Assembly (NCBI GenBank): GCA_038131795.1
Contig: JAYPQE010000003.1
Span: 1,582,630-1,646,629 of the forward strand
Source of the DNA: Candidatus Eutrophobius brisbanensis
Lineage (GTDB): Bacteria; Pseudomonadota; Gammaproteobacteria; Eutrophobiales; Eutrophobiaceae
Direction of reading: 5' to 3'
DNA length: 64,000 nt
A program made the translations under genes and the position numbers. A model generated the notes under the pieces. It was given only the letters and a program-made list of their open reading frames with translations, ran no database searches and had not been told where the DNA came from. How positions within the stretch are numbered: the stretch's first letter is position 1; every line of letters starts with the position of its first letter. This document shows positions 47,554 through 54,266 of this stretch, piece after piece.

Positions 47554-47703
47554 TGTTGATTTATCCTGTCCAACTTACCCGGTTTGGTCAGGCGATAAAA
47601 CTTCCTCAGCTCAGATAATAATCCCCTTCTGTCTCCCTGTCCTACATAGCACTCTTCAAGTCGCCGACAATACAAATATGTTTATTCGTTTATCTAAATA
47701 GTT

Positions 47704-49296
47704 ATGACTTATTATCTATCAACAAAATGTATAGAAAATGTATATACAGTACTAGCTCAATATGAAATTAATAATGCAAGTATCCTGCATATCTTCTTTA
47801 TTTTAAAGGCATGTGGCTATAATCGACTAGAGCAGTTACCAGTTTCTGTCATCTCAGAAAATGGTATTAAACCAGCAATAATGCTTAGTAAGCTTTTCTC
47901 TCCAGAAGAACAACCACCAAAAAAATATGAGTTTATATCTCCTTTCTCAATGAAAAAATGGGCTGCCCAAGCACCATCTGAACCTCTAAATAAGTGGGTA
48001 AAAAGTAGGATAAAAAATAATGTTATTGGTGGTGCAACAACATGGAGGTCGATTATTGATGATGATACATCAAATGAAACCTTTAAGTTTAAATATAATT
48101 ATGCTGAAAAAATAAAAGAATTAACACTAAAAGATATAAAAATTAATTTATTGGCATTAGCTATTTGGTCTCAAAGATTTACACCATTTGACAAAAAATT
48201 GTCAAAGGTTCAATTAACAGAATATTTTAATAAAATTTTTCAAATTACTGAGGAAGAAACTAATCTTTTCTTTGCTCTGGATTTTAGAAAAATTCAAGTA
48301 GAATATTCAAATTCCATTCATGATTCACAATATATTCGAACATTAATTGGAAAGCCAAAATCTGAAACAGATACAGAATGGATTGATTCAGTAAAAAAAT
48401 CGAAAACTAATAATTTACAATATTTTGAAGAAGAGATAATTATGCCTGATTATAGCAACAGCTCCAATCCTCTTGAAGTTGTGGAACCATTACTAAGTAG
48501 ATATCGTCAAGTTATTCTTGCAGGTCCTCCTGGCACATCTAAATCACACATAGCAAATGAGGTATCTAGCAAATATAACGTTAGAAAAATACAATTTCAC
48601 CCTTCTTACTCATATCAAAACTTTATTGGTGGTTATGTTGTTGATGGAACAACTGTTAATTGGAATGATGGTGTCTTATTCGAGTTTTCAAAACTTGCTC
48701 TAGAAAATAAAAGTGAGAACTATCTTCTAATAATAGATGAGATTAATAGAGCAAATGTAGGGCAAGTGTTTGGTGAAACCATTCAATGTTTAGATAGGAA
48801 CAGTACTACTAATATTAAAAGAAAAAATGAGTTAGTTGAGTTCTCTCTTCCATCAAATTTATATATTATTGGCACAATGAATACCTCCGACCGATCAATT
48901 GGAGCAATAGATTTTGCTATAAAAAGAAGATTTATTTCAATCTATGTCCCACCTAATGCGTCACTTGTTGAAGAATTATGCGAAACTGATTTTGGAATTT
49001 CCACCGGAGATTTACTTAGGAAGTTAAATTCTAATTTATTTAATACACTTAAAAACCGTGAACTAGCTATAGGCCATGCTTTATTTTTTGATGAAAGTGT
49101 CTTTAACTCTTCTGAAAAGAAATATATTTGGTCAAATAATGATTTTGAACTTCTTTTTAATTATAAGATATTACCTTTGATTGAAGACTATACAAAAGGA
49201 AATATGTCTCAATTAAATGAAATATTAGGAAAAGATCTTTCAAATAGAGTTACTGGTTCAGATTTTATTAAACATTTAAGTGACTTTGTAAGTTAA
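47704..49296 (+). CDS. McrB-like AAA+ (GTPase-type) restriction subunit with unrecognised N-terminal domain
   Basis: 530 aa with Walker A GPPGTSKS, Walker B LLIIDEINRANV, the McrB signature GTMNTSDRS and DFAIKRRF. I could not place the first ~270 aa in any family. Confidence 0.8.
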   Translation: MTYYLSTKCIENVYTVLAQYEINNASILHIFFILKACGYNRLEQLPVSVISENGIKPAIMLSKLFSPEEQPPKKYEFISPFSMKKWAAQAPSEPLNKWVKSRIKNNVIGGATTWRSIIDDDTSNETFKFKYNYAEKIKELTLKDIKINLLALAIWSQRFTPFDKKLSKVQLTEYFNKIFQITEEETNLFFALDFRKIQVEYSNSIHDSQYIRTLIGKPKSETDTEWIDSVKKSKTNNLQYFEEEIIMPDYSNSSNPLEVVEPLLSRYRQVILAGPPGTSKSHIANEVSSKYNVRKIQFHPSYSYQNFIGGYVVDGTTVNWNDGVLFEFSKLALENKSENYLLIIDEINRANVGQVFGETIQCLDRNSTTNIKRKNELVEFSLPSNLYIIGTMNTSDRSIGAIDFAIKRRFISIYVPPNASLVEELCETDFGISTGDLLRKLNSNLFNTLKNRELAIGHALFFDESVFNSSEKKYIWSNNDFELLFNYKILPLIEDYTKGNMSQLNEILGKDLSNRVTGSDFIKHLSDFVS

Positions 49297-50540
49297 TGGC
49301 AATTAACACTAAGGTAATCACAGAAAACTCAACATGCGTAATAGATGATAAATATGCAATTCATTTAAAAAATATTTTAAATGACAATCCTAAATTACCA
49401 ATTCATCTAATTGAAAATACAATTTATTTTGATGATTACACTATTGGTGAATTAAGAATTGATGATTTATGCATTAAAATTGAACCTAGAAACAAAGCAT
49501 TTGTTCTAGTAACATTTTTTCAAATTTTACAATATCTAGACCAGCCTTTATTAAAAGATATGCCTGGGTTTGGGTTTAATGAAACACAATCTTTATTCGA
49601 CATAAGCTCTTTATCTAGTTCATTTTGTAAGATATTAGATAACTTACTTCAATATGGAATGACTGGGCAATATAATTATACCAGTGAAAAAAGTATGATG
49701 GTGAATGGCGATATAGTTTTTGATTCTTATATCCCGCAATTATTACCTTTTGATGGCATAGAAACAAAATCAATATTTTATTCTAACAATTCAATCTCAA
49801 ATCAAATTATAAAAAGTGCGTTACTAAAATTGATTTTGATTGAGAACTCATCTGTAAATCCTGAAAAATATCAAATTCTGAGGGAGTTTGATTTTGTTGA
49901 TGATAATGTATTCAGTTTGATAGAAGTTGATGAGTGTCTTTTGAATTTTTTTTCACCAAACCCTTATTATATAATCGCATTAGAATTATCTAAGAAAATT
50001 CTTTTTAATTTTAAATTAGAATATAAAGATGGAAATATTGAATGGTTAGCATTTTTAGAAAACTCAAATGCAATTTTTGAAAAGTATATTTTAAAAATTT
50101 TACAGGTAAATTTATCTTCACATAATTTTGAAAAGTGGGATGAACCAAAAACTTTTGCTAAACTAAAAACTCAATTTAAGACTGGTAAAAAATCATATTC
50201 ACCCGATATTTTGATAAATTTTAACAAAAGAAAAAGTTGTGCAGCAGCGATACTAGATGTTAAAAACAAGAAATTTGAACCATCAAAAACTAGTGATTTA
50301 AGCAATTTGGTTTCAACGAGTGATATCTATCAATTAATTTTTTATTGTAAACAATTAAACACTAACGTAGGAGGATTGGTGTATCCTTCTAGCACAACTA
50401 ATGAACCAGTTGAATTAGAAGTAGAGACAGAAGGAAATCTAAAGATTTTTCTTATATCTATTAATGTTCGTGATAATATTGATGACAGACATCGAAAATT
50501 GATAACTGATGTTCTTAATGTAATATTTGCCAACACATAA
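49296..50540 (+). CDS. McrC-like PD-(D/E)xK nuclease subunit
   Basis: 414 aa. Its ATG overlaps the McrB-like stop (TAATG). The C-terminal SPDILINF...AAILDVKNKKF fits the McrC PD...D-x-K nuclease core. Confidence 0.7.
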   Translation: MAINTKVITENSTCVIDDKYAIHLKNILNDNPKLPIHLIENTIYFDDYTIGELRIDDLCIKIEPRNKAFVLVTFFQILQYLDQPLLKDMPGFGFNETQSLFDISSLSSSFCKILDNLLQYGMTGQYNYTSEKSMMVNGDIVFDSYIPQLLPFDGIETKSIFYSNNSISNQIIKSALLKLILIENSSVNPEKYQILREFDFVDDNVFSLIEVDECLLNFFSPNPYYIIALELSKKILFNFKLEYKDGNIEWLAFLENSNAIFEKYILKILQVNLSSHNFEKWDEPKTFAKLKTQFKTGKKSYSPDILINFNKRKSCAAAILDVKNKKFEPSKTSDLSNLVSTSDIYQLIFYCKQLNTNVGGLVYPSSTTNEPVELEVETEGNLKIFLISINVRDNIDDRHRKLITDVLNVIFANT

Positions 50541-52192: not shown

Positions 52193-52239
52193 TATCTCCC
52201 TATGTGGAGATTCCTCATATCTAAAAATATCTGGCGCAT

Positions 52240-52611
52240 ATGGTCAATCACAAAAAGGTCACCTATACATTGGATAGAAGGGTCATCAATATCATTGAGA
52301 GAAGGTCATTCTTATCTGATATGTCACAGAGTCAGTGGTTATCCAACTGTATTCAGTTAGGATTTGAAATAATGGTGGATGATTACTATGACAATAATAA
52401 ACAACCTTTGGTTGGGGCGAAGCGTAAGCGCCACCACACCACCCCAAAAACATTTACCCTACCAATTGATGTTATCAATACACTCAGTTGGTTTTCTGAA
52501 AAATTGGGGATGAAAAAATCCCATTTAGTGGTTGGGTCTGTACTGAATTTTGAAAGAGCAGAATCAGAAAAGCTATCCAATCAGATTCAGCAATTAATGC
52601 AATCAGCATAA
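52240..52611 (+). CDS. Hypothetical protein with two ribbon-helix-helix-like (CopG/Arc-type) segments
   Basis: 123 aa. [37 protein letters not shown] and [35 protein letters not shown] each show a beta-strand/helix/helix pattern. The 3' end overlaps the groEL tail by 25 nt. Confidence 0.45.
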
Positions 52612-54266
52612 TTTCTCTTCATACCGCCCATTCCGCCCATTCCGCCCATGCCGCCCATGTCACCACCCATAGGCATTGCAGGTTCATCCTTGGGAAGTTC
52701 TGCAACCATTGCTTCGGTGGTCAGGATCAGGCCGGCAACCGATGCAGCATTCTGTAATGCTGAACGGGTGACCTTGGTGGGGTCCAGGATACCCATTTCA
52801 ATCATGTCACCAAATTCGCCTGTCTGGGCGTTGTAACCATGATTGCCTGTGCCTTCCAGGACTTTATTGAGAATCACAGAGGCCTCTTCACCAGAGTTGG
52901 CAACGATTTGACGCAGCGGTTCCTCAACTGCACGAATCAGGATCTTAACACCGGTGTCCTGATCGGCATTTTTACCCTTGACCTTGGAAATGGCGTCCTT
53001 AACACGGACCAGGGCTACACCACCACCAGGGACAACACCTTCTTCAACCGCGGCACGGGTTGAGTGCAGGGCATCTTCCACGCGGGCCTTTTTCTCTTTC
53101 ATCTCAACTTCTGTTGCGGCTCCAACCTTGATAACGGCAACACCGCCGGCCAATTTGGCAACGCGCTCCTGCAGTTTCTCGCGGTCATAGTCAGAGGTAG
53201 TCTCTTCAATCTGCTGACGGATCTGCTTAACACGACCCTGAATATCATCTGTCTTACCCGCACCATCGATAATAGTGGAATTTTCCTTGGTGATCTGTAC
53301 GCGTTTTGCACTTCCCAGGTCATCCAGGCTGGCCTTCTCAAGGGACAGACCGACTTCTTCAGAGATCACAGTTCCACCGGTGAGGATGGCAATATCTTCC
53401 AGCATGGCCTTACGACGGTCACCAAAACCAGGGGCCTTTACTGCAGCGACCTTGACGATACCACGCATATTGTTCACTACGAGGGTCGCCAGGGCTTCAC
53501 CTTCAATGTCTTCAGCAACGATAAGTAAGGGCTTACCAGCTTTTGCAACCCCTTCCAGGACCGGGAGTAAATCACGGACATTGGCGATCTTCTTGTCATG
53601 CAATAAGACATAGGGCTCTTCCAAATCTACGCTCATGGTTTCCTGGTTGTTGATGAAATATGGCGACAGGTAGCCGCGATCAAACTGCATACCTTCAACC
53701 ACGTCCAGTTCATCTTCCAGGCTGGAGCCTTCTTCTACGGTTATAACCCCTTCCTTACCCACTTTGTCCATGGCCTCAGCAATACGCTGACCAATGGATT
53801 CATCTGAGTTAGCGGAAATGGTACCAACCTGAGCAATAGCTTTACTGTCTTCACAGGGCTTGGAGAGTTTCTGTAACTCTTCTACCGCAGCCAGTACACC
53901 GGCATCGATACCGCGCTTCACATCCATAGGATTGTGACCGGATGTCACGGCCTTGAGACCTTCGCGAACGATAGACTGTGCCAAAACAGTTGCAGTGGTG
54001 GTTCCATCACCAGCCACATCAGATGTCTTGGAAGCCACTTCCTTGACCATCTGCGCACCCATGTTTTCAAACTTATCTTCCAGTTCAATTTCTTTGGCCA
54101 CGGACACACCATCTTTTGTGACGGTAGGTGCACCAAAACTCTTTTCCAGCACAACGTTACGACCTTTTGGTCCAAGTGTCTGTTTAACTGCGTTGGCCAG
54201 AACATTCACACCCTTAGCCATACGTGACCGGGCGTCATCAGAAAATTTTACTTCTTTAGCTGCCAT
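52587..54266 (-). CDS. groL: Chaperonin GroEL, with an atypical 10-aa extension after the GGM repeats
   Basis: 559 aa with [12 protein letters not shown]. The C-terminus reads [12 protein letters not shown] followed by [10 protein letters not shown]. Confidence 0.97.

Follow-up and report, generated by a model that had tools for sequence, protein, structure and literature searches.

We analysed a 64,000-nucleotide (nt) stretch of Candidatus Eutrophobius brisbanensis DNA (assembly GCA_038131795.1, contig JAYPQE010000003.1), called the window in the following, and all positions given without another source are window positions. Between rho (46294-47553, + strand) and groEL (- strand, ending near 52600) lies AT-rich DNA with five open reading frames (ORFs). 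Three of them, an mcrB-like gene, an mcrC-like gene and a gene for a C5-cytosine (m5C) methyltransferase (MTase), make up the candidate restriction-modification (R-M) system considered here; the other two, ORF4 and ORF5, are small. The GC content is 25-33% across approximately 47750-52250 and 42-52% on either side; by gene it is 29% for mcrB-like, 26% for mcrC-like, 33% for the MTase, 34% for ORF4 and 37% for ORF5, compared with 46% for rho and 51% for groEL. An earlier interpretation made from the sequence alone (the sequence-only reading) had pointed out this sharp shift in composition, which is real; its statement that the shift ends exactly at the end of groEL needs correction, as the right edge lies in the last codon of groEL and the GC content of ORF5 is intermediate. 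The segment and the features of the three-gene system are the following.

47674-52618: foreign segment of 4945 base pairs (bp), 30.1% GC versus 45% for the rest of the window, delimited by BLASTN against same-species contigs.
47704-49296, + strand: mcrB-like ORF (R1), 530 amino acids (aa); AAA_5 (7e-19) and McrB model NF008457 (1.4e-31).
47704-48399, + strand: N-terminal domain of R1 (N-domain), aa 1-232; presumed DNA-recognition module.
48466-49296, + strand: AAA+ NTPase domain of R1, aa ~255-530; AAA_5 match at aa 270-410.
49296-50540, + strand: mcrC-like ORF (R2), PD-(D/E)xK nuclease subunit, 414 aa; Pfam McrBC PF10117 (1.5e-27), PD...DVK at aa 303.
50548-51618, - strand: C5-cytosine MTase, 356 aa; PF00145 (5e-90), TIGR00675 (1.4e-93).
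51619-51790, no strand assigned: intergenic stretch upstream of the MTase gene, 172 nt, 20% GC; presumed site of the MTase promoter.

Domains and motifs of the three proteins

The motor domain of R1 contains GPPGTSKS (aa 274), LLIIDEINRANV (aa 341), MNTSDRS (aa 392) and DFAIKRRF (aa 403), that is, every motif for which the sequence-only reading had called it a 530-aa McrB-type protein, and the AAA_5 and McrB model matches agree with that assignment. Moreover, aa 255-496 match the Escherichia coli McrB structures 6hz4, 7vsr and 6ut6 at E ~1e-32. Across 16 aligned members of the family described below, no variation occurs in Walker A, Walker B, the MNTSDRS signature (NxxD type) or the arginines of RRF. 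The mcrB-like and mcrC-like genes overlap through TAATG, as the sequence-only reading had described, and the 414-aa partner has the PF10117 match and the PD...DVK motif. In R2 the nuclease motif can be written PD-x16-DVKNK, and its residues P, D, I ... D, K, N and K are invariant in 16 family members.

The MTase gene is convergent with the mcrC-like gene, the two stop codons being separated by 7 nt, and it is complete, both as previously described: PF00145 aligns over aa 1-331 to profile positions 1-323 of 324, and TIGR00675 scores 314 bits with a cut-off of 100.65. Residues 1-199 resemble M.HhaI (2e-64), and motifs IX-X align to M.HaeIII and M.HhaI. The target-recognition region has no match to any MTase of known structure. 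The prediction of a target site from solved MTases was thus not possible, since motifs IX-X align and the target-recognition region does not.

The N-domain of R1 was modelled with AlphaFold2 (predicted local distance difference test score, pLDDT, 90.3; predicted template modelling score, pTM, 0.90). The model is mostly helical, with 11 helices, three short strands and one short hairpin. The best match in a profile search of PDB sequences had E=0.64, the best Foldseek match among PDB folds had E=4.3, and all matches in a fold search of viral structure models had E>1.6. Additionally, Pfam gave nothing at E<=1 save one spurious match, and PHROGs gave no match. A B3-type (EcoRII-N-like) domain was ruled out by the helical model and the lack of any PDB sequence or fold match, and SRA-like/DUF3578, YTH and EVE readers of modified bases were ruled out by the lack of Pfam, PDB-sequence and fold matches. 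The sequence-only reading had left room for the N-domain being a known methylcytosine reader, and these same three kinds of search returned none.

In an alignment of 14 N-domain sequences 32 columns are invariant, among them W98, R102, N105, N106, G109, G110, W114, R115 and K128. Residues W98, R102, N105, N106, R115 and K128 are all located on one helix and the hairpin after it in the AlphaFold2 model, and by inference they constitute the DNA-contact surface of R1.

An exhaustive search of 1.84 billion representative proteins with the N-domain profile found 129 cluster representatives. Nearly all of the full-length matches are 510-560-aa fusions with a McrB-type AAA+ domain, and the shorter ones look fragmentary. 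The second half of the N-domain (aa ~96-220; 47989-48360) was also found at the N-terminus of ~630-aa AAA_21/AAA_15 ATPases (P0228, P0246), and it matches the PADLOC model of PtuA, PDLC00270 (E=1e-6). Because of these two observations, we regard it as a sub-domain common to McrB-type and Septu-type defence ATPases. In the comparison with PADLOC proposed in the sequence-only reading, PDLC03547, a restriction endonuclease model derived from REBASE, is matched by R1 in the AAA+ core only, and R2 matched no PADLOC model.

The three genes as a conserved family

Relatives of R1 are numerous (3094 matches at E<=1e-5), and the full-length matches listed are 41-89% identical to it and 520-560 aa long. 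One genome per species was then scanned, which gave 17 loci with a full-length or N-domain-containing match. Thirteen of these contain enough flanking DNA, and in all 13 the mcrB-like gene is followed by an mcrC-like gene and accompanied by an orthologous m5C MTase gene. The hosts belong to Bacillota, Bacteroidota, Pseudomonadales, a Melainabacteria-like lineage, Patescibacteria and Mollicutes; at least six phyla are represented. The MTase gene is convergent in eight of the 13 loci and co-directional in the other five (L008, L009, L011, L014, L015), its adjacency being kept throughout. One MTase match stands beside the mcrC-like gene in each family locus, and L008 has a second, weak match ~7 kb away.

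As a baseline we used 82 loci that have enough DNA on both sides and whose McrB homologs match in the AAA+ domain only. An m5C MTase gene was found within 4 kb in 18 of these 82 loci (22%), as against 13/13 family loci (Fisher p = 6e-8). The core of the sequence-only reading, a module of the LlaJI/BsuMI kind and not a Type IV enzyme paradoxically placed beside an MTase, is well supported by these comparisons and by the further copies described next.

The closest copy, from a metagenome (L001, 89% identical), has the same mcrB-like, mcrC-like and convergent MTase genes and different flanks. Nucleotide homology between it and the window starts exactly at 47674, and the R1 and R2 reading frames have the same length in both (530 and 414 aa). 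In an independent metagenome copy (L003-L005), whose McrB-like protein is 56% identical, the three genes stand beside unrelated genes on a 393-kb contig. The window copy has both marks of the family, namely full-length R1 homology including the N-domain and the same three-gene neighbourhood. Identity in the N-domain is 29-55% within the family, and a basic/polar cluster in it is invariant. The MTase is the best conserved protein of the three; between the family loci, identity in its target-recognition region is 50-81%, with long runs that do not vary, which implies that the family MTases share one specificity. Judged by this recurrence in differing sequence surroundings, the mcrB-like/mcrC-like/MTase trio is a conserved mobile cassette.

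A distant full-length branch (~28-32% identity) was found on two plasmids (L085, L086) and on seven viral or proviral contigs from IMG/VR (L100-L106), each with an m5C MTase gene nearby. The plasmids come from Lactobacillaceae and Staphylococcus; on these two, which were the ones compared, the McrB-like protein is ~29.5% identical and the MTase is of a different type, at ~30% identity. The N-domain reader and the MTase thus change together in this branch, as expected if both must share a target. Close members of the family were not found on phages among 2.9 million viral contigs, where the distant branch at 28-32% identity was the only one represented. On the S. epidermidis plasmid of the distant branch, an IS1182-family element lies between the MTase gene and the R genes. 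In a Bacteroidetes metagenome-assembled genome (L015 9992-13836), all three genes are split over several reading frames, owing either to decay or to assembly or sequencing error.

We found no experimental study of the family in the literature, and its members are labelled "McrB family protein" or "AAA family ATPase" in the databases.

Predicted mode of action and alternative explanations

LlaJI, LlaI and BsuMI are McrBC-related, site-specific systems with methyltransferases (PMC1459862; bioRxiv 10.64898/2026.08.31.748284; PMC12707154). LlaJI, from Lactococcus lactis pNP40, and its homolog in Helicobacter pylori are described as recognising an unmodified site (PMC1459862, PMC12707154), and in the case of LlaI the MTase is required to recover plasmids bearing the R genes (bioRxiv 10.64898/2026.08.31.748284). 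Taking the genomic evidence together, we consider it likely that the trio is a nucleoside triphosphate (NTP)-dependent R-M system that resembles LlaJI in action and belongs to a distinct, widespread family with a single MTase. The m5C MTase would methylate a short target on host DNA, and with one enzyme this target would probably be palindromic. The N-domain of R1 would read the same sequence when it is unmethylated. The McrB-type AAA+ domain would then form a hexamer on GTP or another NTP and recruit R2; nucleotide hydrolysis would power DNA translocation, and the PD-(D/E)xK site of R2 would cut unmodified incoming DNA. The domains, the motifs and the linkage of the three genes are observed; which methylation state is cut, which nucleotide is hydrolysed and that the site is palindromic are inferred.

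[quoted passage not shown] In the window, a conserved 232-aa N-domain precedes the AAA+ domain in one 530-aa protein, and a McrC-like PD-(D/E)xK subunit is encoded next to it. The differences from LlaJI listed in the sequence-only reading, namely one MTase, a convergent layout (in the window copy) and a different N-domain, were all confirmed. LlaJI has two MTases for the asymmetric site GACGC/GCGTC and four co-oriented genes, whereas the island encodes one MTase; and the N-terminal domain of LlaJI.R1 is of the B3 type (PMC12707154), whereas that of R1 is helical and has no fold match. The comparison with LlaJI was made through published descriptions and the PADLOC restriction endonuclease model named above. 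With 585 positions this model is as long as R1.LlaJI is reported to be, and it may represent that protein.

LlaI and BsuMI likewise combine a McrB-like AAA+ motor, a McrC-like nuclease and MTase(s) and act site-specifically on unmodified DNA (bioRxiv 10.64898/2026.08.31.748284). In both, the DNA is bound by an R1 protein distinct from the motor, which in LlaI is ERCC4-like, and the motor has no N-terminal linker, whereas here no separate DNA-binding R1 is encoded and reader and motor are fused in 530 aa. With canonical Type IV McrBC (E. coli, Thermococcus gammatolerans) the system shares the MNT(S/A)D(R/K)S signature of the NxxD type, the Walker motifs, the paired arginines and a translationally coupled McrC; GPPGTSKS, DEINR, MNTSDRS and RRF are all present in R1, and its partner has the McrBC Pfam match. 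Canonical systems use SRA-like or YTH readers of modified bases and have no cognate MTase, whereas the N-domain of R1 is unrelated to these readers and an orthologous MTase gene is adjacent in every one of the 13 loci. According to passages of the census by Bell et al. 2024, the NxxD, NxD and NxxxD McrB GTPases are often found in the context of DNA methyltransferases, and the association occurs in all McrB branches and is probably ancestral (PMC11090510); the R-M explanation fits this. The present family (NTSD, hence NxxD) fits that description as far as these passages go; its N-domain, fixed three-gene layout and single conserved m5C MTase do not appear in them.

Several points weigh against the proposed R-M system. 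No measured activity was found for any family member, and the recognition sequence is not predictable from the MTase. A single MTase would not fully protect an asymmetric site, so that the assumption of a palindrome bears weight. The conserved linkage shows a functional connection and does not tell which methylation state is cut. Finally, the start codon of the mcrB-like gene is 30 nt from the left edge of the island (47674-47703), and the restriction genes may be promoterless and dependent on read-through from rho, or silent.

The last point leads to the alternative that the cassette in the window is an inactive or decaying remnant, in which the MTase may work while the R genes are silent, their promoter having been trimmed by the insertion. 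The short leader before the mcrB-like ATG would fit this, as would the trimming of the island to <=7 nt from the stop codon of ORF5, the lack of a mobility gene inside it and a promoter and terminator scan of the island, in which promoter-like matches were no commoner than in shuffled sequence. We nevertheless consider it unlikely: the three reading frames are full-length with intact catalytic motifs, and R1 and R2 have kept their lengths relative to the metagenome copy at 89% nucleotide identity. Moreover, the mcrB-like gene follows rho on the same strand at a distance of 150 nt, and no terminator-like site was detected between the two on that strand in the scan, so that read-through transcription of the mcrB-like and mcrC-like genes is possible.

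It is also rather improbable that two separate systems travel together, that is, a Type IV McrBC directed against foreign methylation and an m5C MTase of non-overlapping specificity, either an orphan or what is left of another R-M system. In its favour, canonical McrBC depends on modification, and E. coli McrB is closest to the AAA+ domain of R1; the baseline frequency of 22% indicates that chance co-location in defence islands does occur among unrelated McrB loci; and a convergent MTase gene is not part of the R-gene operon. Against this explanation stand the adjacency in all 13 loci across phyla, with an orthologous MTase every time, the fact that the MTase is the best-conserved of the three, the dissimilarity of the N-domain to SRA/DUF3578, YTH, EVE or any other reader, and the recurrence of the same tight three-gene block amid unrelated flanks in different genomes. 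Highly improbable, finally, is a pair in which the MTase makes the substrate by marking DNA (e.g. that of incoming or replicating phage) for the McrBC-like enzyme to cut: nothing specific speaks for this one logical coupling, which is compatible with linkage alone, whereas with a constitutively encoded MTase the host's own chromosome would be marked too and the pair would be self-destructive, the trio has no conserved companion gene for a regulator or sensor, and the characterised relatives LlaJI and LlaI run the opposite way (PMC1459862; bioRxiv 10.64898/2026.08.31.748284).

Within the preferred explanation, restriction of unmodified DNA with protection by the MTase, a more specific proposal can be made, which in our judgement could equally well prove right or wrong. 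The N-domain of R1 would represent an undescribed sequence-specific DNA-reading fold whose second half is common with the N-termini of PtuA-like (Septu-type) ABC ATPases, and the members of this widespread family of NTP-driven restriction enzymes would all recognise the same palindromic site, to which a single conserved m5C MTase is matched.

Replacement of native genes and the small ORFs

The remaining features of the locus concern its junctions and the two small genes.

47547-47675, - strand: native-gene remnant, the last 42 codons of a 217-aa gene; its translation is the C-terminus of ORF 2174-2827 of contig L087, and it is cut by the left breakpoint.
51791-52192, - strand: ORF4, 133 aa; in the foreign segment, outside the R-M module.
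52240-52611, + strand: ORF5, 123 aa, tandem ribbon-helix-helix DNA-binding protein, TraY-like; phrog_3887 "transcriptional regulator" (1.5e-7).
52587-54266, - strand: groEL with altered C-terminus; bases 52587-52618 are island DNA antisense to ORF5.

The Rho protein of the window is residue-for-residue the same on contigs of GCA_038120825.1, GCA_038120015.1 and GCA_038121505.1, and the few named members of its cluster carry the label Gammaproteobacteria bacterium. Two of these same-species contigs, L087 and L089, cross the left junction and agree there, the homology of both to the window stopping at 47673. In BLASTN comparison L087 is 99.6% identical to the window as far as 47673 and 97.7% identical from 52619 on. 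In place of the island L087 has 1355 bp of 41% GC (2301-3655) with three - strand genes of 217, 105 and 125 aa (2174-3467), none of which could be assigned to a family. All three were lost from the window locus with the arrival of the island. The right edge, 52618/52619, falls within the last codon of groEL; the native GroEL end ...GGMM* is lost and a 10-residue tail is gained from the antisense strand of the 3' end of ORF5, with a 25-nt overlap between ORF5 and groEL. The native ending, ...GGMGGMM, is present in L087 (with its stop codon) and in L090. The 42-codon remnant of the 217-aa gene and the breakpoint within the final codon of groEL indicate that the island-bearing state of the window is the derived one. 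The possibility, raised in the sequence-only reading, that the five genes are a conserved and compositionally normal part of this locus in relatives was checked: both L087 and L089 lack all five, and the island is not native.

The same reading had noted the lack of any integrase, transposase, tRNA or flanking repeat, and our searches agree with it. Searches of Pfam and NCBIfam assigned none of the five island proteins to an integrase or transposase family, no tRNA gene was found in the window, no flanking direct repeat was found, and neither junction showed a duplication or an att-like repeat. An integrative element with att sites was rejected for the window copy on the basis of the missing tRNA, the missing flanking direct repeats and the lack of duplication at the breakpoints. 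The 4.9-kb AT-rich segment with the trio took the place of the three native genes that had stood between rho and groEL, apparently through illegitimate recombination, which is not site-specific, and this replacement matches the "substitution" class in the catalogue of R-M-linked rearrangements by Furuta et al. (PMC2853133). The end of the island at <=7 nt from the ORF5 stop codon and the absence of a mobility gene inside it were observed at the same locus.

The sequence-only reading had counted ORF4 and ORF5 as two extra genes of the module, and in this respect it did not hold: the five genes are not one unit. Homologs of ORF4 and ORF5 were found in none of the related loci and the two genes have separate histories, and we therefore rejected them as parts of the R-M module; they would have been carried along as its neighbours. 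ORF4 matched no family in library scans, and a search of 5.8 billion proteins gave a single homolog, P0152, at 68% identity. This homolog (L090 7998-8333) is frameshifted, shorter at the N-terminus and in the opposite orientation, and is located in DNA of 27-34% GC, 0.56 kb from the 3' end of a groEL of 55-61% GC in another bacterium. ORF5 homologs usually have a "MILIY" protein beside them; the idea that ORF4 corresponds to it was rejected, as ORF4 and this protein have no sequence similarity.

The AlphaFold2 model of ORF5 (pLDDT 90.9) contains a strand-helix-helix unit twice. Its best fold matches (probability 1.00, E 9e-4) are ~105-120-aa chains of the F-plasmid relaxosome, accessory chains that we take to be TraY; weaker fold matches (E 0.04-0.7) are VirC2, single-chain Arc, AvtR and DndE. 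Thirty homologs of ORF5 were found. In four other contexts (L093-96, L097, L098/99 and L180) they are convergent with groEL and just downstream of it. The AT-rich blocks with an ORF5 homolog in L098/99 and L181 contain a Rep3-like initiator and runs of small ORFs (74-87 aa), that of L181 also two tyrosine integrases, and similar small ORFs occur in L183 together with an N6/N4 methyltransferase gene. ORF5 is 80% identical in nucleotide sequence to the copies downstream of groEL, compared with ~70% for groEL itself, and ORF5 was therefore acquired horizontally; the donor was probably a lineage of lower GC content. DNA of an accessory pool seems to land repeatedly at the 3' flank of groEL, and the distribution of the ORF5 homologs suggests a family of elements that often lands there. 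Possibly the island in the window is what is left, after trimming, of such an element that carried the R-M genes as cargo; we offer this as a lead and not as a conclusion.

As an allelic replacement with island-free sister strains available for comparison, the locus is a clean natural case of the arrival of an R-M cassette, and the rewriting of the GroEL C-terminus is an unusual side effect of the insertion. McrBC machinery paired with an MTase is of a kind already known and would not surprise a specialist; the unmatched N-domain reader, the conserved single-MTase layout and the replacement with its island-free sister strains make it a good experimental system. Studies of McrBC-derived enzymes acting on unmodified DNA are limited to a handful, namely LlaJI, LlaI and BsuMI. 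The family presented here is a compact two-subunit version with one MTase. If the proposal of a new DNA-reading fold is true, it would add a fourth architecture for McrBC-based R-M beside LlaJI, LlaI and BsuMI. The DNA reader is without a structural relative among solved structures and the family occurs in many phyla, which makes the family a tractable model and possibly a source of a new restriction specificity.

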